Of a stretch of 64,000 nucleotides of DNA, positions 28,588 to 54,204 are shown piece by piece. The DNA is taken from positions 14,064,323 to 14,128,322 of the forward strand of contig NC_090416.1 of the NCBI RefSeq assembly GCF_036365525.1. The letters run 5' to 3'. The notes under the pieces were generated by a model. That model was not told where the DNA came from. It made no database searches and saw only the letters and a list, made by a program, of their open reading frames with translations. The stretch's first letter is position 1, and each line of letters starts with the position of its first letter. This DNA is from Heterodontus francisci. Taxonomy: Eukaryota. Both the position numbers and the translations under genes were made by a program.

Positions 28588-28790
28588 TGAGTAAATAGAC
28601 TCTGCTGTAAACTCGTCTCTGTCTGCTCAGTAAATAGACACTTTGCTGTCAAATAGACTCTGTTTGCTGCTTGCTCAGTAAATAGACTCTTCCATAAAAT
28701 AGACTCTGTTTGCTGTTTGCTCAGTAAATAGACTCTTCCATAAAATAGACTCTGCTGTTTGCTCAGTAAATAGACTGTGCTATAAAATAA
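28588..28790. repeat. Degenerate ~45-bp minisatellite built on an aaatagact core
   Basis: gctcagtaaatagactc...aaatagactctgtttgctg repeated about 4-5 times in CA14 intron 5. Confidence 0.75.
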
Positions 28791-29041
28791 ACCCTGTTAT
28801 AAGTCTCGCCCCACATCCAACACATCGATTGCCAGAATGGTGTCAATACTCACTCCACATACAAGATGGTGTTGGATCTGGGAGAGCCATCTACTGGCCA
28901 GAGGTTGGAGCTACATTGTTACACACACCTGTTTACATGCAGGATTTCCATTCTATGTTTTTACATAAGCAGAGCAGTGCTCAATGTTGATGTGTGCAAA
29001 TGAGCAAAAATCCTGACAACAGGAGTCAGATTGAGACTCAC

Positions 29042-31697: not shown

Positions 31698-32359
31698 CAT
31701 CAAACACTCCCAGGACAGGTACAGCACGGGGGTTAGATACAGAGTAAAGCTCCCTCTATACTGTCCCCATCAAACACTCCCAGGACAGGGACAGCATGGG
31801 GGTTAGATACAGAGTAAAGCTCCCTCTATACTGTCCCCATCAAACACTCCCAGGACAGGGACAGCATGGGGGTTAGATACAGAGTAAAGCTCCCTCTACA
31901 CTGTCCCCATCAAACGCTCCCAGACAGGTACAGCACTGGGGTTAGATACAGAGTAAAGCTCCCTCTACACTGTCCGCATCAAACACTCCCAGAACAGGGA
32001 CAGCATGGGGGTTAGATACAGAGTAAAGCTCCCTCTATACTGTCCCCATCAAACACTCCCAGGACAGGGACAGCATGGGGGTTAGATACAGAGTAAAGCT
32101 CCCTCTACACTGTCCCCATCAAACGCTCCCAGACAGGTACAGCACTGGGGTTAGATACAGAGTAAAGCTCCCTCTACACTGTCCGCATCAAACACTCCCA
32201 GAACAGGGACAGCATGGGGGTTAGATACAGAGTAAAGCTCCCTCTATACTGTCCCCATCAAACACTCCCAGGACAGGGACAGCATGGGGGTTAGATACAG
32301 AGTAAAGCTCCCTCTACACTGTCCCCATCAAACACTCCCAGGACAGGTACAGCACGGGG
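31698..32359. repeat. 70-bp tandem repeat array, left part (9 units plus a partial unit)
   Basis: catcaaacactcccaggacaggtacagcacgggggttagatacagagtaaagctccctctatactgtccc; unit starts 31698, 31768, 31838, 31908, 31977, 32047, 32117, 32186, 32256, 32326. Confidence 0.95.
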
Positions 32360-33136
32360 ATTGGCTGGTCAATTTGGAGCACTTCCTGCCAGCAATCAGG
32401 GGGAGCAGCTGCACCTGTGTTGCAGCAATTGCAGAGTGGAGAGAGGATACTGGAGAGAGGTGAATACAGAGTGGAGACTGCAGCAACTGGAGAGAGAGAC
32501 TGGAGAAAGGTGAATACAGAGTGGAGACTGGAAACTGCAGCAACTGGAGAGAGAGACTGGAGAAAGGTGAATACAGAGTGGAGGGAAACCATCAAGGAAG
32601 GCTGCAATTTTTCTGGAGAGGTGGGTGTCAGGGCACCTGAAAGACTATTAAGTTTAAACTGTTTGGGGGAGGGAGAAGAGGCCTGAAGACTCAGGGGTGG
32701 GGCAGCCAAATCCAGTAAGGGCCCCTGTGTTTGTATTGGTGTTTGCACACAGGGAGCTCCCTCCCCACCCCAACTGCCTGCTCGGGACAGCTGGAGTTGC
32801 CCGGGTGAAGACTGTCTTGTTAAAATCAGAAGAGGAGAGTACCGGGCGGCTCCAGCTGTCCCGGGCGAAGAAGCCTCCCCCAACTGGAAGACAACAAACA
32901 AGTTTGGACTAATTGTGATAAAGGTGCTCCAACTGGCAGTTGAAACAAACATCCTTTTCAGCCTTTCTCTCCCTTCCTCCACTCAGTCGCCTCAATCACC
33001 TATCCTCCCCTTTTCCTTTACCATCCTACGCCATCCTCCTCTACTCCCACTCCACCTTGTTTAAAGTTTGCTTTTTTTAAAAAAAATTGTGTAAATTTGT
33101 TTTGTTTCTTGGGGGTGGACGTAGCTCTTAGACCCC

Positions 33137-35176
33137 ATGGCAAGCCCCTCTTCGCCGGTGGCGGGGCCTTCCCGTTCATATGCTGCTGCGGCTGCTGCAG
33201 CTGCACCTGTTGCCCCGTCACCGTTTGCTTTATTAACAACGAAGCATGGGGTCAAGAGCTACGTCCACCCGAACATGACTATAGAGGCATGTGTGAAAGC
33301 AATGGCCGAGGTTGTCGGCCCTTCGGCCATTGTTGCAGCCTCTAAAATGTACGGGAAGGCAGTGTTTTTCCTGAAGACCGAGCGGGCGGTGTCCCTGGCT
33401 CTGAGCAAGGGGCTCACCGTGGGCGGGACCTTTCTGCCAGTGGACCCCCTGGAGGCCACTGCGCAAAGGCTCATTTTATCCAATGTCCCACCCTTCATCC
33501 CTGGTGAGCTCCTCCTTCCCCACCTGCACCATCTGGGGGAGGTAAAGACGGGGCTCACCCCAGTCCCGCTCGGTCTTCGGGAGAACAGCCTCCGACACGT
33601 GTACTCCTTCCGCCGCCAGTTATTCATGCAGCTGGCGCGGGAGGAGGTGACAGAGAGCCACTTCAATGTAGAATTCCAGGGGACGGCCTACCGCGTCTTC
33701 TGGACCTTGGACGGGGTGCGGTGCCATGTCTGTAAGGGGGTGGGGCATGTTCGTAAGAACTGCCCCAACCTCCCGGCTGCCAACTCCAACTCAGCGGCCC
33801 AGGGTGGCGACGCTGCACCTCCTCCCACCCCCACTACACCACCACCAGATACCATTCAGTCGGTACCGGAGGCTGTGGTTTTCACGGCCTCCGGCAGGGA
33901 GGGGGGTGACCGTCCAAGTGGAAGGAAGGCGCGGAGGAGAAATAAACATCGAGAGGCACGTCCCCTGGATATCGTGACACTACCCGAGCCTGAGCTCAGC
34001 CCAAGGCCCGATCTCGGGAAGTCAACTTGCCCCAGGGCTGGGCTCAGGCCCAGGGTGAATAAAAAAAAGGAGAGTGTGGAGGTGGAGGCCTCTGATGATA
34101 TGGAGGTCTCTGAGCCTCCGCACACAACTGGGAAAAAGAGGAGAAGGCACCCCTCCACAGAAATAACACAGGGCCCTGAGGTGCAGGGCCCATCTGTTGG
34201 AGGGGAGCTGTCTCCTGTTTCGGGTCCCCAGGTTTCCCCTACCGCCACCACCAAGGCTGCAAAGTCCGGGCAGGTGCTCCCTATTCCTCAGGATGGAGGG
34301 GAGGGGATGGCCCCGGTACGTGAGGCCCCTCCTGAAGGAGTAAGTGGGGCCCTGCTTGTGGTGGGGGAGCCTGGGGAAACCGCCCATTCCGCCACTGCTA
34401 CTGGGTCGGGTGTCCTGAATGAAGGGGAGGGCGAGGCCCCAGAGGGTCGGGCCTCCCAGCCGGAGTCCACCACCAACCAGGAGACACCCGACCCAGTTAT
34501 AACTGAGAATGCTGCCCCATCTGCTGGGCCTGTGGGTGCTGGCGGAGCGGGAGATGGCCTCCTCTCGCCGCCTCCAGTCTCGGCTCCGGCTGGTTTCCCG
34601 GAGTCCGGAACTTCTGTCTCCCCTGGACCACTCATTGGCCTGGGGATGGAGGTGGAGGGGGGTCCTGAACCGCTGGTGCCTACAGGCTCCAGTTTCACAA
34701 TAGAACCCAGAGAGGACTCCTCCGCCATCGATCCTGGGGGTGGGATCGTGACGGAGGCGGGACCAGCTGGCGCGGCCGGGGCGTCCGCCCCACAGTGTGT
34801 GGTGGATGTGTCGGCCGCTGGCGGTGACGACCCGGAGGAGGATGGGGATTCGGTGCGGGGCACGGAGGATGATCTTGATTCCATCGCCAGTGAGGTGGTG
34901 GAGTCCCTCGTGCCTCCCACCGAATCTCCTCTCATCCCCACGGCGGAACTCCGGGATTTCCTCGCGGCTTGCAGAGGTTGCCGCAATAAAGTTCAGCTGG
35001 CCCTCGACCGTTGGTCGAATCTGGCGCTGATCATCCAGTCCGTCCGTGCCGCCCTTAAGATAGCGGGCAAGCGCGCGGACGTGAAACTGGTTGAGAGGCG
35101 CCGTTTTAATGTGTTCCTCAATGGGTTGCTGGGGGAGTGGAGGGCCAGGTGCACTTCCACTCCCTCCTCACAGTGA
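33137..35176 (+). CDS. Tx1-type ORF1 (gag-like nucleic-acid-binding protein, CCHC knuckle)
   Basis: 679 aa. N-terminal region with SKMYGKAVFFL and LILSNVPPFIP, knuckle CHVCKGVGHVRKNC, long low-complexity linker, helical C-terminus. Confidence 0.9.
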   Translation: MASPSSPVAGPSRSYAAAAAAAAPVAPSPFALLTTKHGVKSYVHPNMTIEACVKAMAEVVGPSAIVAASKMYGKAVFFLKTERAVSLALSKGLTVGGTFLPVDPLEATAQRLILSNVPPFIPGELLLPHLHHLGEVKTGLTPVPLGLRENSLRHVYSFRRQLFMQLAREEVTESHFNVEFQGTAYRVFWTLDGVRCHVCKGVGHVRKNCPNLPAANSNSAAQGGDAAPPPTPTTPPPDTIQSVPEAVVFTASGREGGDRPSGRKARRRNKHREARPLDIVTLPEPELSPRPDLGKSTCPRAGLRPRVNKKKESVEVEASDDMEVSEPPHTTGKKRRRHPSTEITQGPEVQGPSVGGELSPVSGPQVSPTATTKAAKSGQVLPIPQDGGEGMAPVREAPPEGVSGALLVVGEPGETAHSATATGSGVLNEGEGEAPEGRASQPESTTNQETPDPVITENAAPSAGPVGAGGAGDGLLSPPPVSAPAGFPESGTSVSPGPLIGLGMEVEGGPEPLVPTGSSFTIEPREDSSAIDPGGGIVTEAGPAGAAGASAPQCVVDVSAAGGDDPEEDGDSVRGTEDDLDSIASEVVESLVPPTESPLIPTAELRDFLAACRGCRNKVQLALDRWSNLALIIQSVRAALKIAGKRADVKLVERRRFNVFLNGLLGEWRARCTSTPSSQ

Positions 35177-35208
35177 GGTATTGGTGACGGGTTTTACGTA
35201 CCTTTGAC

Positions 35209-38200
35209 ATGAAGATAACCATAGCCAGCCTCAACATCAACGGCAGCAGAGGGGCTCACCGCAGATTTCACAATCTCTCAGTCCTTAGGGAAGGGAGATA
35301 CGCGGTGAGCTTTCTGCAGGAAACCCACACCGTTCCGGGAGACGAAGCCACCTGGCTCCTGGAGTGGCAGGGTGGGGTCTACATGAGTCACCTCACCCCT
35401 ATTTCTAGTGGGGTGGCTATCTTGTTGGCCCCGACTTTTCAGCCGGAGATCTTGGGGGTCAAGGAGCTAGTGCCGGGCCGCTTGCTCCACCTCGCCGTTC
35501 GCCTGGGTAGCGTGCCGCTCCACTTTGTGAACGTGTACGCGCCCAGGCCCGGCGCTTTGCAAGCGCGCTTCTTTGAAGAAGTGTCCGCTCTCTTGAGCTC
35601 CATCGATAGCGGCGAGTGCATCATCCTCGGGGGGGATTTTAACTGCACCCTCGAGGTGGGGGATCGCTCCGGTCCCCAGCGCGGCCAAGCGTCGGTGGAG
35701 AAGTTGAGGGGACTGATCAGCTCCCTTAACTTGGTGGACGTCTGGCGGAATCTCCATCCCGACTCCAGCGCCTTCACGTGGAGGTCTGGAGGAGGGGGGT
35801 CGCGAATCGACCGCCTCTACATTTCGCAGGCGTACGTCTCCCGTGTCTCGGCGGCCTCCATGCGGCTGGTGCCGTGCTCGGACCACCGCCTGGTGTGGGC
35901 GGAGTTCACTCCGCTCCGCACGCGGGCGGGGTCTGCGTACTGGCACTTTAACAACCGGCTGCTGGAGGACGTGCGATTTCGGGACTCGTTCTGTCGATTC
36001 TGGGCCGACTGGAGAAGGAAGCAGGGGGGCTTCCCCTCCTTGAGGCTATGGTGGGATGTGGGCAAGACTCACATCCGCGTCTTCTGTCAGGAGTACGCGA
36101 AGGGGTCGACCAAGAGGCGGGAAGCCGAGGTCGGGCGCCTTGAGAGGGAGGTGCTCGACTTGGAATCCCGCCTCGGTCATGCCGTCGCGGACCCGGCCCT
36201 GTGGCAGGCGTACAAAGAGAAGAAGGGCGCGCTGAGGAACCTGCAGCTCATAGGGTCCCGAGGCGCGTACGTGAGGTCGCGGATCCAGATCCTGGAAGAT
36301 TTGGACCGCGCCTCACCCTTCTTCTACTCGCTGGAAAAATGGCGGGGGGTCCGTAAGCAGCTCGTCGAGCTGCTGGCCGACGACGGATCCTCCATCACGG
36401 ATCCGGAGGGAATGGGCCTCCTGGTCCGGACGTATTACAGTGCGTTGTTCTCTCCGGATCCGTCCAGCGAGGATGCGCGCAGAGTTTTGTGGGAGGACCT
36501 GCCGCAGGTCAGCCCGGAGGGCGCCGAAGGATTGGAGGCTCCGCTCACGTTGGCGGAGCTGACTGGCGTCCTCCACCAGCTCTCGAGGGGCAAATCCCCA
36601 GGGCTGGATGGGTTGACCGTGGAGTTCCTCAGGGCGTTCTGGGACGTCCTGGGGGACGATTACGCGCGGGTCCTGGGGGAAAGCCTGGCGACCGGGGAGA
36701 TGCCCCTCTCGTGGCGCAGGGCGGTCATCGTCCTGCTGCCGAAGAGGGGCGATCTCCGCCTGCTTAAAAACTGGCGTCCGGTCTCCCTCCTCAGCACGGA
36801 TTATAAGATCTTTGCCCGGGCTATGTCTACCCGCCTGGGCTCCGTGCTGGCCCACATGATCCACCCCGACCAGTCCTACACGGTCCCGGGCCGGTCCATC
36901 CAGGACAACATCCACCTGGTCCGGGACCTGATCCATCTTTCCCAGAGGACTGGTCAGTCGGTCGCCTTTCTCTCCCTCGATCAGGAGAAGGCGTTCGACA
37001 GGGTGGATCACGATTACCTTTTCGGTACTCTGCGCGCTTTCGGACTCGGGCCGCATTTTGTGTCCCGGGTCCGACTTTTATACGCCGCCGCAGAGTGTCT
37101 AGTCAAAGTTAACGGGTCCTTGACGGCGCCCCTTCGATTTGGGAGAGGAGTGCGTCAGGGGTGCCCCATGTCCGGCCAATTGTATACCATCTGCGTGGAG
37201 CCCTTCCTGTGCCTGCTTCGCAGGAGGTTGACGGGATTGGCTCTGCGCGAGCCGGCCATGCGGGTCGTCCTCTCGGCTTACGCCGACGACGTGCTCCTCG
37301 CAATCACAGATCCCGTTGACTTGCGGAGGATGCGCGACTGCCAGCAGACCTTTTCTGCCGCGTCCTCCGCGAGGATCAATTGGGAGAAATGTTCCGGACT
37401 CCTGGTTGGTCAGTGGCGGGTGGACTCCCTGCCGGAGGAGATGACACCTTTTGCGTGGAGCACCACGCACCTCCTCTATCTGGGAGTCCACCTTAGCCCC
37501 GCTGAGGAAGCCTGGCCGGCAAACTGGCAGGAGTTGGAGGCGAAAGTCACCGCTCGGCTGGGGCGCTGGACAGGACTGCTCCGAGTGCTTTCCTACAGGG
37601 GCCGAGCGTTGGTCATAAACCAACTGGTGGCCTCCATGCTGTGGTACCGGTTGGTCACTTTGGCCCCGCCCCCTGTATTTGCCACCAAGATCCAGAAGAA
37701 ACTCGTCGATTTCTTCTGGGGCAAGAGGAAACACTGGGTCTCTGCCGCGGTCCTGAGTCTCCCGATCGAGGAGGGCGGTCAGTCGCTGGTGTGCGTCCGC
37801 ACCCAGGCTGCGACTCTCCGCCTTCGGACCCTGCAGAGATACCTGTACGTCGAGCGTCCTCCCAGATGGTGTGCGCTGGCGACGTATTTTTTCCGCCAGT
37901 GTCACTGCCTTCAAGACGACACGCAGCTCCCGGTGGAGTCCGTTAGCCGCGCCTCTCTGAGGGAGTTGCCTGTCTTTTACCGGGATCTTTTCCGAGTCTG
38001 GAACATGGTCGCCTCCAGTCAGGGCGCTCCCCCGCCGGCGGAGGAGAGCGCCTCGGCTGTCCGGGCGGCCGACTCCGGGGACGGTCCGGCGGGCGGAGGA
38101 GTAGCCGAAACCCCCGGGACGCCCCTCACTGTGGGTGGCGAGGGGGCTCGGGAGTGCGGAGCGATCCCGGCCGAGCTGACGCCCGCTCGGCCGGAACTGC

Positions 38201-38946
38201 TCATCGGACCCAGGCCCCGAAACCCTCCTCGGGAGCCGGTCCCGCACAATCCGAGCTGCCTCTCGGAAATGCCCTCCGTGCCATTCCAATCGGCGCGGAG
38301 GGGTTTCCTGTACGGGCTGCTCCTGCACACTCTCCACTTCCTCGCCCTCGTCAGCCGGCCGGACACGCCCTGGCGGTCCGCGTTGCCATCTGGCGGCGAG
38401 GGGAAACCCCGATGGAGGTCTCTCTACGCGGGAGTCTTCCCCCTTTACATCGGGGACCTGGGGTGGAGGGTGCTGCACAGAGCAGTCCCGTGCAATAGGC
38501 TTTTAAGTAGGTTCACGGACTCCCAGGCCACCTGTACTTTCTGCGGCCTGGACGAGTCCGTGTTCCACATTTATATGGAGTGTGCGAGGTTGCAGCCCCT
38601 ATTTGAGTATCTGAAGGGGCTGCTCCTCAAATTCTGGCTGCACTTCAGTCCCACACTCCTGATCTTTGGGCACCCGGTGCGGAGGGGCTTGGGCCGGGAG
38701 GAGGATCTCCTCGTCGGTCTGCTCCTGGGCCTGGCCAAGGTGGCAATTCACAGGTCCAGGTTGCGGGCCGTCGGGAGTTCCGTCCTCCCCGATTGCCTGC
38801 CCCTCTTCCGCGGTTACGTTCGCGCCCGGGTGTCCCTGGAAAAGGAGCATGCGGTGTCCGCCGGTACGCTTGAGGCCTTCCGCGACCGGTGGGCACCGCA
38901 GGGACTGGAGTGCATCGTCGACGCCAAGAATGGCATTTTAATTTGA
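35209..38946 (+). CDS. Tx1-type ORF2: APE endonuclease + reverse transcriptase + C-terminal Zn finger
   Basis: 1245 aa. SLNING, FLQETH, GGDFN, SDH (APE); LDQEKAFDRV, GVRQGCPMS, YADD (RT); CTFCGLDESVFHIYMEC. Confidence 0.95.
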   Translation: MKITIASLNINGSRGAHRRFHNLSVLREGRYAVSFLQETHTVPGDEATWLLEWQGGVYMSHLTPISSGVAILLAPTFQPEILGVKELVPGRLLHLAVRLGSVPLHFVNVYAPRPGALQARFFEEVSALLSSIDSGECIILGGDFNCTLEVGDRSGPQRGQASVEKLRGLISSLNLVDVWRNLHPDSSAFTWRSGGGGSRIDRLYISQAYVSRVSAASMRLVPCSDHRLVWAEFTPLRTRAGSAYWHFNNRLLEDVRFRDSFCRFWADWRRKQGGFPSLRLWWDVGKTHIRVFCQEYAKGSTKRREAEVGRLEREVLDLESRLGHAVADPALWQAYKEKKGALRNLQLIGSRGAYVRSRIQILEDLDRASPFFYSLEKWRGVRKQLVELLADDGSSITDPEGMGLLVRTYYSALFSPDPSSEDARRVLWEDLPQVSPEGAEGLEAPLTLAELTGVLHQLSRGKSPGLDGLTVEFLRAFWDVLGDDYARVLGESLATGEMPLSWRRAVIVLLPKRGDLRLLKNWRPVSLLSTDYKIFARAMSTRLGSVLAHMIHPDQSYTVPGRSIQDNIHLVRDLIHLSQRTGQSVAFLSLDQEKAFDRVDHDYLFGTLRAFGLGPHFVSRVRLLYAAAECLVKVNGSLTAPLRFGRGVRQGCPMSGQLYTICVEPFLCLLRRRLTGLALREPAMRVVLSAYADDVLLAITDPVDLRRMRDCQQTFSAASSARINWEKCSGLLVGQWRVDSLPEEMTPFAWSTTHLLYLGVHLSPAEEAWPANWQELEAKVTARLGRWTGLLRVLSYRGRALVINQLVASMLWYRLVTLAPPPVFATKIQKKLVDFFWGKRKHWVSAAVLSLPIEEGGQSLVCVRTQAATLRLRTLQRYLYVERPPRWCALATYFFRQCHCLQDDTQLPVESVSRASLRELPVFYRDLFRVWNMVASSQGAPPPAEESASAVRAADSGDGPAGGGVAETPGTPLTVGGEGARECGAIPAELTPARPELLIGPRPRNPPREPVPHNPSCLSEMPSVPFQSARRGFLYGLLLHTLHFLALVSRPDTPWRSALPSGGEGKPRWRSLYAGVFPLYIGDLGWRVLHRAVPCNRLLSRFTDSQATCTFCGLDESVFHIYMECARLQPLFEYLKGLLLKFWLHFSPTLLIFGHPVRRGLGREEDLLVGLLLGLAKVAIHRSRLRAVGSSVLPDCLPLFRGYVRARVSLEKEHAVSAGTLEAFRDRWAPQGLECIVDAKNGILI

Positions 38947-39133
38947 GTTTTTTGTTTATTTATCTGTTTTAATAAAGTTATTTTAAAACTGTAAATATGT
39001 ACATAAAGGGGGCCTGAGGGATAAAGGCCCCCTCGATGTGAAAAATATAAAAGGGGCCTGGGGTATAAAGGTCACCTTGTAAAAAGAAAAAAAAAAAAAC
39101 GGGTTTGATACAGAGAAAGAAAAAAAAAAAAAA

Positions 39134-39226
39134 ACGGGGTTAGATACAGAGTAAAGTTCCCTCTATACTGTCCCCATCAAACACTCCCAGGAAAGGTACA
39201 GCACTGGGGTTAGATACAGAGTAAAG
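39134..39226. repeat. 70-bp tandem repeat array, right part
   Basis: Resumes in register after the poly(A): acggggttagatacagagtaaag...catcaaacactcccagg...ttagatacagagtaaag. Confidence 0.9.
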
Positions 39227-42336: not shown

Positions 42337-43195
42337 GCCAGTACTGAGGGAGTGCTGCACTGTCGGAGGGTCAGTACTGAGGGAGTGCCGGACTGTCGGA
42401 GGGTCAGTACTGAGGGAGTGCCGCACTGTCGGAGGGTCAGTACTGAGGGAGTGCCGCACTGTCGGAGGGTCAGTACTGAGGGAGTGCCGCACTGTCGGAG
42501 GGTCAGTACTGAGGGAGTGCCGCACTGTCGGAGGGTCAGTACTGAGGGAGCGCCGCACTGTCGGAGGGTCAGTACTGAGGGAGTACCGCACTATCGGAGG
42601 GTCAGTACTGAGGGAGTGCCGCACTGTCAGAGGGTCAGCACTGAGGGAGTGCCGCACTGTCGGAGGGTCAGTACAGAGGGAGTACCGCACTATCGGAGGG
42701 TCAGTACTGAGGGAGTGCCGCACTGTCGGAGGGTCAGCACTGAGGGAGTGCTGCACTGTCAGAGGGTCAGTACTGAGGGAGTGCTGCACTATCGGAGGGT
42801 CAGTACTGAGGGAGTGCCGCACTGTCGGAGGGTCAGCACTGAGGGAGTGCTGCACTGTCGGAGGGTCAGTAATGAGGGAGTGCTGCACTGTTGGAGGGTC
42901 AGTACAGAGGGAGTACCGCACTATCGGAGGGTCAGTACTGAGGGAGTGCCGCACTGTCGGAGGGTCAGCACTGAGGGAGTGTTGCACTGTCGGAGGGTTA
43001 GTTCTGAGGGAGTGTTGCACTGTCGGAGGGTCAGTACCGAGGGAGTGTTGCACTGTCGGAGGGTCAGTACTGAGGGAGCACCGCACTATCGGAGGGTCAG
43101 TACTGAGGGAGTGCCGCACTGTCGGAGGGTCAGCACTGAGGGAGTGCCGCACTGTCGGAGGGTCAGTACTGAGGGAGTGCCGCACTGTCGGAGGT
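42337..43195 (+). repeat. 33-bp minisatellite (about 26 units) inside a SINE
   Basis: gtcagtactgagggagtgccgcactgtcggagg; flanked by SINE head (about 42252) and tail (about 43415). Confidence 0.95.
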
Positions 43196-44976
43196 GCCGT
43201 CGTTAGTGGTCAATATTCATCACTGAATTCATCACATCATTAAAAGCGGATGATCTGGGCCAGTATCACATTGCTGTTTGTGGGATCTTGCTGTGCGTAG
43301 ATGGCCACGTTTCATGCATTACGACGGTGACTGCACTTCAAAATAGGACTTTATTGGCTGTAAAATGCTTTGTGGAGTCCTGGGGTCGTAAAAAAGGTGC
43401 TATAGGAATGCAGGATTCTGCTTTACCTTTGCAAGCTGCTCAGTCAGGAACTGGTCAAGGTTCGTGGTGCACTGGTGATTAAAATACTTCAGAGTTTTAA
43501 ACATTTTTATATAAGAGGTTTTGCACTAATGCTCTTAGCATTCCGAATGGGTGACTCACATTCGCATGGTGCCATTTCATTTCTCTCGGCTACGTCTCAA
43601 AGTGCTACGCATTTCAGGAATTACTTGGGAAGCGAATGTTCTACAGGCAGACGTGGCAGCCATTTTTGCACCCAACAAGTAGCAATGATTCTGTTTTTGG
43701 TTGAGGGAGGAATGTTGGCCTGGACACAGGGAGAGCAGGACCCCGCTGTTCTTCGAATTGCTAACCCACAGGAGCGGACAAGACCTACTCTAAAGGGGTA
43801 GAGTTAATCTTCCTGTGCCTGGGCTGCTTGTGGGGGTCGGGGGGGGGGGCAGCGACCACAGGAGATTCAGGCAGGCTCCATCATCCGTGGCTTCGAAACC
43901 CCCCAGACTTGACTATTCCAATGCTCTCCAGCCTCCCACCCTCCGTAAACGTCAGCTGCCCTGTCTGCTAACTCGTGCCAATTCCTGTTCACACATCACC
44001 CCCTGTGCTCGCTGACCTACATCGGCTCCCGGGCCGGCAACACCTCGGTTTTTAAATCCTTGTCCTCCAGTGCAAATCTCCTCTGTGGCCCTCGCCCCCT
44101 CCCTATCTCTGTAAGCTCCACCAGTCCTACAACCCTCTGCGTTCCTCCAATTCCGGCCTCTTGCATATCCCCCGATTCCCATCGCTCCACCATTGGCGGC
44201 CGTGCCTTCAGCTGCCTGGGGGGCCCTAAGCTCTGGAATTCCCTCCCTAAACCTCTGCCTCTCTCTCTCTCTCTCTCTCCTTCTTTAAGACATTCCTTAA
44301 AACCAACCTCTTTGACCGAGCTTTTGGTCAGCTGTCTTCTTGTGTGGCTCAGTGTCAAATCTTGCCGGATAGCATCGCTATGAAGTGCCTTTGGACGTTT
44401 TATTGCATTAAAGGCACTGCAGTTGTATTACACCTCATCTGATTTCCCTTGGGATCCACTAGCCACAGACCCAGAAAGGGGAAGACCTGCCCCAAAGTCT
44501 CCTATAAGAGACAAACCCTTCCGAACATACAGTATTGAAGTGTCAGCCTAGCTAGGCTATGTGCCTAAGCCCTTTGCCTCATGAAATTCTAGTTCACTGG
44601 TGCTAGCTACCCAGCCCGAGCGCTGATCAATTCTGTTTAACTGTCCTAATTCGGTTTGTTAGTCACCACTCTCCCAGGCTCAAGACAACAGCCATTGCCT
44701 CTGTCACAGCCTCAAACATAAACAATAGAAAAGATGAACAAACTTAATGAAAGGAAGATTTGCATTTCTATAGCACCGTTCACAACCTCAGGGCATCCCA
44801 AAGTCCTTTACAGCCACAGAAGTGGTTTTTCGAAGTGTAGTCACCGTTTGATTGAGGGAGGAGTATTGGCCAAGACACAGGGGGGAGAGCTCCCCCCCTG
44901 CTCTTCTTTGAATGGAGGCCAGGGGATCTTCTGCACGCTCCTGAGAGTTTGATGTCTCATCTGAAGAATGGCACGG

Positions 44977-45355
44977 CAGCACTCCCTCAATACTGCCTCT
45001 CCGACAGTGCAGCACTCCCTCAATACTGCCTCACCGACAGTGCAGCACTCCCTCAATACTGCCTCTCCGACAGTGCAGCACCCCCTCAATACTGCCTCTC
45101 CGACAGTGCAGCACTCCCTCAATACTGCCTCTCCGACAGTGCAGTACTCCCTCAATACTGCCTCTCCGACAGTGCAACACTCCCTCAATACTGCCTCTCC
45201 GACAGTGCAGCACTCCCTCAATACTGCCTCTCCGACAGTGCAGTACTCCCTCAATACTGCCTCTCCAACAGTGCAACACTCCCTCAATACTGCCTCTCCG
45301 ACAGTGCAACACTCCCTCAATACTGCCTCTCCGACAGTGCAACACTCCCTCAGTA
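44977..45355 (-). repeat. 33-bp minisatellite (about 11-12 units) inside a minus-strand SINE
   Basis: cagtgcagcactccctcaatactgcctctccga; SINE spans about 44757-45440. Confidence 0.95.
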
Positions 45356-46168
45356 CTGGCAGTGGGGGCGTCAGCCTCGATTTTGTGCTCAACTCTTTGG
45401 AGGGGGACACAAACCCACAACGTTCTGACTCCGAGGCGAGAATACTCTCACCCTATAATATTTGGGAAGATGTTTCTCATTCGGAATCATTCATTTGAGG
45501 CTCCAAACTATAACTAATGAAACGCATTGCCTGTTTTGATATGGACCCTAACAAGGGGCCCCCAGGATTTAGGCCCCAAACATCCACTGACTAGTGGTTC
45601 CTGCCCAAGGGAGGGGAGTGCAGTAGCCAGCAGTACCCTCTCCTGATCACGATGCTGACAAGTACAAACCTGCGTAGGTTGGACAGGAAAGGGCCCAGTC
45701 ATGATGCCCCCCAAGACTGAATAGCCTGCTGATATTCATCACCAAAGCATCAGCACTTGGCCTTCAGGCAGAAGTGTTGGAAATTGTGGAGGTGGGAGGG
45801 GGAGGAAAGAACTGGGCGACATGTACTGCTGTTTAAATAAAAAAGATTTTGATCGAGTCTAGTCTGACTGGCTACTCAGCTGTGGGTGGCAGCGATGTCT
45901 GGCCATGAATTTACTGGCTATGAGTCACACACTGTCAGCAGTGACTGTATGAGTGTGGTTGGTGAATGAATGGGAACGATTGACAGGCTGTGGGTGAGGA
46001 TTAGTGCCAGTATAAACTTTGCATATAAACGTTAAACACGGAACAAGACATTGGATTAACCTGTTCATCCAGCTGGCTGCGCTGAGTTGGAGTGAGGGAT
46101 GCGGTTTGGGAGCACCAGATTTAAACACAGTGACATATCAACTTCATGACATTTCTTTGGGAAAAAGG

Positions 46169-51699: not shown

Positions 51700-53910
51700 C
51701 AGCCCCTCTCCCAAGCACCCACCCATTGCGACCCCACCCATCCTTCATATTTCTTCCATCCCCTTCTCCTCTCCATCTCTCCCCTCCCACTCACCTCCTC
51801 TACTCTATATCTCCTGCCCCTCCTCCCTGCAACACCTACCTCCTTCCTTCTCCCCCCTCCCCCCACATCTCCTGCTCCCTCCTTCCCTCATCTCCCGCTA
51901 CCCCTCCTCCTCCCCTCCACATCCTCTGTCCTTTCTTTCCCTCCACATCTCCCACCATCCTCACCGCTGTGTCCTCCTCCCCATATACCCTTCACCGCAT
52001 CCCCGATCCCATTCCCCTATATCCCCCCTCCCATAAAGCCTCTATTCCCCCCATGTTCCTCTCCCCTCCCATATCCCCCACCCTTCCCCATATACCCATT
52101 CCCATATCCATATCCCCCCTCCTCCATATCCCCTTCTCCCAACCCTTTTTCTCATAACCTCCTTCCCCGTATTCCCTTCGCCTGTATCCCCCTTGGCCTG
52201 TATCCCCCTTCCCCCATATCCCTCCATATCCTCCCTCCCTGTATTACCCCAGAGCCCTGTAACCCCCTTCCCCAGTTTCACCCTTCCCGTATTCTCCTGT
52301 ATCTCCCCTGCCCATATTCTCCTGTATTCTCCCATAACCACTTTCCCCTGTATACGCCTCCCCATATTCCTCCATATACCTCTTCCCCATATCCCCTCCC
52401 CCTGTATTCAACCATATCCCCCTCCCCCTGTATTCCCCGCACCCCCATATTCCCCTCTACTTATTCTCCCATATCCCATCCTCCCGTATTCCCCCATATC
52501 CATCTCCCCCCATATTCCCCCATATCCATCTCCCCCCATATCCATCTCCGCCCATATTCCCCCATATCCATCTCCCCGTAACCCCTCCCCCCATATCCAT
52601 CTCCCCGTAGCCCCTCCCCCCATATCCATCTCCTCCGTAACCCCTCCCCCCATATCACCTCCCCCGTAACCCCCCCTCCTATTCCCCCATATCCATCTCC
52701 CCTTAACCCCTCCCTCCTATTCCCCCATATCCATCTCCCCGTAACTCCTCCCCCATATTCCCCCCATATCCATCTCCCCGTAACTCCTCCCCCATATTCC
52801 CCCATATCCATCTCCCCGTAACTCCTCCCTCCATATCCATCTCCCCGTAACCCTTCCCTCATTTTCCCCCATATCCATCTCCCCATAGCCCCTCCCCCAT
52901 ATCCATCTCCCCGTAACCCCTCCCTCCTATTCCCCCGTAACCCCTCCCTCCTATTCCCCCATATCAATCTCCCCGTAACTCCTCCCTATTCCCCCATATC
53001 TCCTCCCTATTCCCCCATATCCATCTCCCCGTAACCTGACCCCCAAATTACCCCATATCAATCTCCCCGTATCTCCTCCCCCATATTCCCCCATATCCAT
53101 CTCCCCGTAACTCCTCCCCATATCCCCCCATAGCCATCTCCCCGTAACTCCTCCCCCATGTTCCCCCATATCCATCTCCCCGTAACTCCTCCCCCATATT
53201 CCCCCATATCCATCTCCCCGTAACTCCTCCCCCATATTCCCCCATATCCATCTCCCCGTAACTCCTCCCCATATCCCCCCATAGCCATCTCCCTGTAACT
53301 CCTCCCCCATGTTCCCCATATCCATCTCCCCGTAACTCCTCCCCCATATCCATCTCCCTGTAACTCCTCCCCAATATTACCCCATATCCATCTTCCCGTA
53401 ACCCATCCCCCATATCCATCTCCCCGTAACGTGACCCCCAAATTACCCCATATCCATCTCCCCGTAACCGTCCCCCATATTCCCCTATATCCATGTAACT
53501 TGTCCCCCATATTCCCCCATATCCATCTCCCCCGTAACCTTTCCCCCATATCCATCTGCCCCATAACCTGTCCCCCATATCCATCTCCCCGTAACTTGTC
53601 CCCCATATCCATCACCCCATAACCAGTCCCCCATATTCCCCCATATACATCTCCCCCATAACCCCTCCTGGAACCCCCATACCCCTTTCCCGTAACCCAC
53701 CCGTACTCCCTTCCCCATAATCCCTCCCCTGTAACCTCACGTAACCTCTCCCCCGTCATCCCCTCCCGTATTCCCCTCCCCGTATTCCCCATCACCCCCT
53801 CCTCCATAACCCCCTCCCCATTACATCCTTCCCCATAAGTCCCATCCCAGATCCCATATGCCCCCTCCTAATAACCTCCTCCCCCTTATCCCCTCCCTAT
53901 ATTGACCTCC
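51700..53910. repeat. C-rich low-complexity region / variable-unit minisatellite
   Basis: Core ccccatatccatctccccgtaac(tcct) interleaved with ccccatatt; most regular at about 52480-53660; almost no G on the + strand. Confidence 0.9.
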
Positions 53911-54204
53911 ACATTCCTCATTCACCTCAAATCCACCTCTATATTCCCCCAAAACGCTGTCCACATTCCTTCCATATTCCTCTCCATATTCTCCCTGCTT
54001 TGTTGCTTTCGGAATACTGCTCAATTTGTGACATTTCCCTGTGCTGAACGAGAGTCCACGCCCCTCGGTATGTTTCCTCTCTCGATCTGTCCCAAGACAT
54101 ACACTGTCCACCTCCACCTCCAGCCCTGTGCAAATGGTGCCTCCTTTTCTGAATCACATCCCTCCCTCCTTGTCAGCCACCATGAAAGGAGGGAGGAGGG
54201 GATA

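Follow-up and report, generated by a model that had tools for sequence, protein, structure and literature searches.

A Tx1L-lineage retrotransposon that prefers one base of a 70-bp repeat and probably carries pieces of it to new sites

The DNA analyzed here (the window) is a stretch of 64,000 nucleotides from Heterodontus francisci (contig NC_090416.1, positions 14,064,323 to 14,128,322), within which a long interspersed nuclear element (LINE) of the Tx1 clade sits inside an array of a 70-bp tandem repeat. The family to which this element belongs inserts preferentially at one base of the repeat, and it does so genome-wide. The reading we favor, and consider probable, is that a young LINE of the Tx1L lineage not only prefers this base but also moves downstream pieces of the repeat to new locations; target-primed reverse transcription of read-through RNA is the likely route. 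Copies share the insertion base; truncated copies are flanked by duplications of about 13 bp; 5' junctions of full-length copies contain letters borne by the element rather than by the array; and repeat cargo, bounded by poly(A) and by target-site duplications (TSDs), lies at unrelated sites. The observation is well supported, and targeting as such is of a known kind. The putative target-like leader at the 5' end of the RNA, and the dispersal of the target, are what set this family apart.

Preference for one base of the repeat

Counted by exact matches to a 27-mer from the end of the second open reading frame (ORF2), the family has at least 1,281 3' ends genome-wide. All 58 exact 27-mer matches on contigs C1, C2 and C3, none chosen by score, served as the sample, and each copy was classed by eye on its final integration site, once copies that merely carry the target as cargo had been removed from the on-target class. 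Thirty-three (57%) lie at CAGCA^CGGGG of the 70-bp repeat, 24 lie elsewhere and one is unclear. Chance would place fewer than 0.001 copies on target even with 200,000 cut sites; on this generous site count, the enrichment exceeds 30,000-fold. (A 38-mer of the target has 13,961 exact occurrences.) For comparison, Tx1 families are termed target-specific when one sequence type makes up more than 20% of their flanks (Kojima 2015, PMC4494074). An earlier note on this DNA had proposed that the family targets the repeat. It was right about the preferred base, but with 24 copies (41%) off target this is a strong preference, not strict specificity.

The 5' ends tell the same story. Two overlapping sets of intact 5' ends, found by queries starting inside the element and without reference to the flank, adjoin either the repeat itself or a stacked stub of poly(A) and target, in 30/30 and 30/30 cases; in a larger pool, itself partly target-selected, 135 of 136 abut the target or a stub. 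Of 29 other best-scoring 3' ends (40 were scored), 28 have a first poly(A) that is followed by the target or by the 5' end of another element. Canonical sites number 3,651 behind poly(A) and 7,272 empty across the genome; local amplification has probably raised the former count, which is also strand-skewed (1,168 and 2,483). Tallying 3' flanks, the check that the earlier note proposed, finds 46 of the 58 copies adjoining the target, and this overcounts targeting because 13 of the 46 carry the target as cargo; flank counts overstate specificity, in short, because the element transduces its target. The suspected preference for the ACGGGG variant, correctly reported (as ACGGGG(G)) in 2 of about 11 window units, was not seen. 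Variants after poly(A) occur in roughly the proportions of the empty units: CGGGG 82, CGGGGG 28, TGGGG 17 and CAGGG 17, versus 102, 42, 16 and 15.

Could insertion be near-random instead, with selection removing full-length copies elsewhere, and with cargo and the duplication of element-plus-array blocks inflating the association? The 13 cargo carriers among the 46 are indeed off-target copies, and some loci are duplicates (L031–L033, L041/L047, L331/L332). Selection could not fix one base and one orientation, however; flanks, tails and array variants differ between copies; and the size of the enrichment, together with base-exact junctions at unlinked loci, already contradicts the idea, which we judge highly improbable.

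A more serious rival is that the endonuclease has a loose preference for CA^NGG, and that copies pile up in the repeat mainly through RNA–DNA pairing (of the 5' leader, and of read-through sequence) and open chromatin near chromosome ends. Off-target sites have little in common beyond C-A and, often, GG. Off-target copies are exclusively 5'-truncated (24/24), and one full-length copy, L227 (C21:35910637-35919637), has its 3' end in a different satellite of approximately 29 bp, at the near-cognate CACGGGGGGTTA. The endonuclease hairpin loop, a structure linked to selectivity (PMC1950540, PMC1919474), is short and glycine-rich, with 7 residues versus 11 in Tx1L. Yet 7 residues is also the length of the R1Bm graft, and R1Bm is specific; the Tx1L endonuclease on its own nicks almost exclusively its target (PMC1950540); and leaderless, 5'-truncated copies occur on target, too (L141, L203, L220 and others). 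We think this rival possible but unlikely, and prefer a nuclease that would nick the bottom strand at CA^NGG, best in the repeat and loosely elsewhere. Two points besides the off-target fraction tell against our main reading: the on-target class was assigned from the 3' flank wherever the 5' end lay outside the fetched stretch, and the 18 copies on C1–C3 that lie more than 25 Mb from a contig end comprise 17 off-target and one unclear.

Target-site duplications and a target-like leader

Like other elements of the Tx1 clade, truncated copies have poly(A) tails and TSDs, the latter found by script at 28 of 42. Twenty-seven were listed as off-target, of which one (L203) is actually on target; their median length is 13 bp, 26 of the 27 measure 7–15 bp, and C-A precedes the tail in 21. 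L203 and L220, both truncated and on target, have duplications of 13–14 bp. The second, top-strand nick would fall some 13 nt downstream of the first.

Full-length copies behave differently. The earlier note described a 6-bp TSD, and CGGGG (or ACGGGG, the A being ambiguous with poly(A)) does flank the window copy on both sides. It is no signature of the family, however: truncated copies duplicate about 13 bp, and full-length 5' junctions consist mostly of element-borne letters. At 69 of 92 junctions, CTGGG precedes ATTGG, versus 3 of 252 empty units; this CTGGG is independent of what the 3' flank reads, and the junction type occurs 750 times exactly in the genome. CGGGG is kept at 11 of the 92, the window copy among them, and it is because its junction kept these letters that the window copy appears to have a TSD of 5–6 bp.

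The junction of L230 contains 11 leader bases that are missing from its local array, and, at positions -1 to -12, the junction unit has lost the local variant in 32 of 33 cases, the figure between empty units being 53 of 145. From these patterns, we infer that the RNA carries a target-like leader of at least 11, and likely about 17, bases that anneals to the upstream target. Full-length cDNA would pair there through the leader and integrate cleanly, which would account for intact 5' ends being almost never seen elsewhere. Copies would also stack head to tail, since both the tail|CGGGG boundary and the 5' junction of the element look like the target. Some caution is due. The loss of variants at the junction could also reflect a nuclease that chooses canonical units, and CTGGG and L230 are the only evidence that separates the leader from such a choice; at positions -13 to -22, variants are kept in 0/4 cases versus 14/40 controls, too few to tell whether the leader exceeds about 17 nt.

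Two other ideas about this end of the element were tried and rejected. One derived the leader from another site within the old parent repeat described below, but the 14-nt match occurs in only 1 of 23 parent copies and was put down to chance. Nor is the repeat a ribozyme carrier of the retrozyme or Penelope-tail kind: neither the target nor the 5' end matched any Rfam family at the gathering score, be it a hammerhead, twister or hepatitis delta virus fold or another RNA, no Rfam ribozyme appeared up to E 10, and the junction folds no better than shuffled sequence.

At least one further type of 5' untranslated region (UTR) is attached to the same ORFs in other copies. Copies L101, L106–L111, L113, L114, L116, L118 and others combine near-identical ORFs, from around element base 750, with different 5' UTRs; all of these UTRs begin with (C/T)TGGG or CGGGG, and their starts also hold what we take to be a reverse CCAAT-like motif. 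Four copies (L112, L027, L279, L281) are joined inside another copy's ORF, and not to the repeat.

Repeat cargo and the spread of the target

Thirteen of the 24 off-target copies have target sequence between two poly(A) tracts. The window copy has a compound tail of the same kind—poly(A), a 16-nt repeat piece and a second poly(A)—which the earlier note had passed over. Such tail fragments range from 9 to 69 nt, and 28 of the 82 fall within 9–18 nt, the range of the TSDs. We considered and rejected the possibility that they are TSDs, because the head of the fragment matches the head of the next target in only 15 of 82 cases, when chance predicts 16%, and in only 2 of the 28 short ones. The clearest case for carriage is a donor–daughter pair: L029, on C17, bears about 300 nt of sequence that flanks L009, on C40, followed by a new poly(A) and a new target. 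Among 20 repeat loci on C1–C3 away from the main clusters, 11 (10 of them independent) have a script-verified TSD of 10–16 bp that encloses element plus repeat, or repeat alone. Of the others, three lack terminal poly(A) and six, excluded from the count, have weak or spurious TSDs (L313, L315, L318, L319, L321, L323). The empty canonical sites listed for the interiors of C1 and C2 (over 25 Mb from either contig end) fall into eight loci, seven of which are cargo, six with verified TSDs.

The poly(A)-fragment-poly(A) tails might be built in another way, by repeated tiny insertions into the same nick, each with its own TSD. Short, 5'-truncated insertions preceded by 9–14 bp of target do occur in tails (L077, L107, L096), and the 28 short fragments are of a suitable size, but their chance-level heads, the enclosure of fragments by TSDs at unrelated sites and the L009/L029 pair refute this as the main source. 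As a general explanation it is improbable; as a minor contributor it remains. 3' transduction, the reading we prefer, would work as follows. Poly(A) starts at several places, 4–30 nt behind AATAAA, TATAAA or GATAAA, and weak signals of this sort would let transcripts continue beyond the tail and into the array. Where cargo has intact cut sites, as in L316 (six sites), L317 (four), L328 (three), L325 and L326, it would then provide new landing pads; the cargo of L316 comprises about seven units, and L328 consists of four units with no element sequence at all.

Taken further, these features suggest a form of niche-building. With a copy of the target at both ends of its RNA, the element would use the front copy for full-length integration on target and the rear one to found new arrays whose cut sites are intact. 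Element and satellite would thereby amplify each other, in a loop that explains much of the repeat's spread in sharks. We offer this tentatively, and put it at somewhat below even odds. Several findings weigh against it, or against carriage more generally. Most of the repeat is located close to contig ends and was not shown to be cargo, and no seeded interior array has been shown with a later insertion. Transcript start, end and read-through are deduced from genomic DNA alone. L001 shares the 16-nt piece of the window copy, down to an identically interrupted A tract, but is not the nearest relative of that copy over the last 1.35 kb (13 mismatches, versus 9–13 for several others), and five tag matches yielded no donor. 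Finally, the satellite is an amplified piece of an older element, and the Tx1 family is not its inventor. A dispersed repeat of about 280 bp contains the unit in single, older versions; its copies (L335–L337 and L339–L368, each with one ancestral unit of the 70-mer) are 71–81% identical and have their A-rich end on the opposite strand.

The old dispersed repeat lacks the CGGGGTTAG motif, and no tRNA head was found on it in 23 copies. That the window array still sits within a parent copy was considered and rejected, since matching extends no more than about 8 nt upstream or downstream.

Mammalian L1 elements perform 3' transduction, and orphan transduction as well. The likeness is close: read-through of a weak poly(A) signal, a second poly(A), a TSD around the cargo, and orphans without element sequence (L325, L328). 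L1 cargo, however, is whatever happens to flank the donor, whereas in our family the cargo is almost always the target of the element itself. R1 stacks in tandem at a site that is used repeatedly. R1 and R2 belong to other clades and do not disperse their target, an essential gene, but co-transcribed target sequence is known to aid their integration into 28S rDNA (summarized in PMC4494074). Tx1L of Xenopus laevis inserts, as our element does, into repeated non-genic sequence (PMC4494074, PMC1950540). Its target is the DNA transposon Tx1D rather than a 70-bp tandem repeat, and the accessible parts of these two papers report neither a target-like 5' leader nor target cargo for Tx1L; the shorter hairpin loop and the 41% of sampled copies off target also distinguish our family. 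Targeting of satellites by Tx1 elements is already known, with satellites listed as a target class in the legend to figure 3 of Kojima 2015 (PMC4494074), which labels Tx1 families 'Sat'. Close precedents, with a different target and host, are the crocodilian Tx1-Mar families and SINEU-3, which share the repeat preference, tandem insertions that sandwich target or TSD, and 5' extensions derived from flanking target; the accessible parts of that paper do not describe 3' transduction as a means of dispersing the target (PMC4494074). The accessible parts of PMC3747384, PMC5499810 and PMC10620051 make no mention of this pair of element and target, and in the literature covered, outside which lie most subscription papers, Repbase and Dfam, we found no report of the family, of the 70-bp repeat, or of a Tx1 element that spreads its target.

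The family has practical appeal. It offers a vertebrate element, combining polymerase and endonuclease, that has a defined cut site, a candidate natural homology leader and more than 100 apparently intact copies, and with these a system for weighing nuclease against RNA–DNA pairing in Tx1 targeting, which bears on retrotransposon-based gene insertion. It also offers a concrete route, with TSDs and a donor–daughter pair, by which a satellite can move to new chromosomal sites.

Some observations lie to one side. In L207 (C2:222031483-222039383), a tail module of poly(A) and about 45 nt of target has been amplified into a new satellite, with 72 matches in the stretch. Short pieces of non-element or related-family sequence, each with its own poly(A), occupy the same cut site in L023, L096 and L107, which suggests that RNAs other than the element's are inserted at this site or transported as cargo. 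Target-poly(A)-target pieces that resemble tails occur in contigs from two other organisms, and hint weakly that carrying the target might be a shared habit.

The window copy and its family

All features of the window copy lie on the plus strand, and the earlier description of a two-ORF element that splits the 70-bp array, which then picks up in register, is borne out. The upstream array (31698..32359) comprises 9.5 units with a period of 70 and 93% matches; it is interrupted after CAGCACGGGG at 32359 and resumes at 39135 with CGGGGTTAGATAC, for about 1.3 units (39135..39226). The cut site, CAGCA^CGGGG, falls between 32354 and 32355, inside a 5' junction zone (32344..32359) whose target sequence matches the family's presumed leader and in which the target letters CGGGG were retained; we infer the joining step here from the letters of the junction. 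The 5' UTR (32360..33136) is CpG-poor and has an internal 57-bp repeat at 32437-32583. Both ORFs are uninterrupted. ORF1 (33137..35176; 679 aa) has one putative CCHC knuckle (CX2CX4HX4C, aa 195-211) and a long low-complexity region, the PF00098 score of 15.8 (E 0.015) falling below the cut-off of 20.8. ORF2 (35209..38946; 1245 aa) has an APE endonuclease (aa 6-226), a reverse transcriptase (aa 511-762, with YADD) and a C-terminal CCHC-type motif. The 3' UTR (38947..39080) contains AATAAA and two GC-rich hairpins (fold z -3.3), the loops of which hold GATAAA/TATAAA in this copy and AATAAA in most others. There follow the first poly(A) tail (39081..39099), the 16-nt variant target piece (39100..39115), which we read as 3'-transduced from a donor's flank, and a second poly(A) tail (39116..39134), the true 3' end of the insertion. 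The description of the ORFs as CpG-rich holds for ORF2 (observed/expected 0.87) but only weakly for ORF1 (0.59); the 5' UTR stands at 0.18 and the flanks at 0.44–0.49.

Membership of the Tx1 clade, which the earlier note had assigned, is upheld by homology, alignment and tree alike, and can be narrowed to the Tx1L lineage. ORF2 matches Pfam profiles PF03372 (E 1.5e-16) and PF00078 (E 2.5e-38), and its catalytic motifs and CX2CX7HX4C align with those of Tx1L. The best named full-length relative is Xenopus Tx1L ORF2 (UniRef name YTX2), which has the same layout and is 55% identical over 76% of the query, or 52% in the alignment; a partial protein match of 93% is named from the horn shark. The endonuclease–reverse transcriptase phylogeny that the earlier note had called for (24 rows, 23 of them from 120 listed matches; midpoint root; no rows named Keno, Mutsu, Dewa or L1) places the element with Tx1L in a clade of eight rows that also includes sturgeon and turtle proteins, with support of 100/100.

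The family is young. One 5' end type has 306 copies. Among 120 long loci, selected for the most part as best matches, 73 retain a full-length ORF2, with a median identity of 99.1% and 39 open; the endonuclease domains are identical in 150 of 150 scored, about 124 of them (counted by eye) within frames of at least 1216 aa. A search for sister families by endonuclease returned identical copies only. Among sequencing runs, which were compared as contigs, the element or part of it was found in 20 of the 24 public runs listed, from several organisms; in four runs from four organisms all 30 element bins are covered, and the repeat is present, too. Run X11, from another organism, has near-identical, low-depth pieces along the whole element (window 32298-39158) beside abundant, diverged relatives, a pattern that suggests recent transfer or contamination.

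Other repeats accompany the element in the window. Two arrays of a 33-bp repeat lie on opposite strands at 42339-43194 and 44976-45358, each apparently an expanded internal piece of a sequence that we take to resemble a short interspersed element. A 46-bp repeat occupies 28590-28798, and a long, C-rich, degenerate minisatellite occupies 52174-53991.

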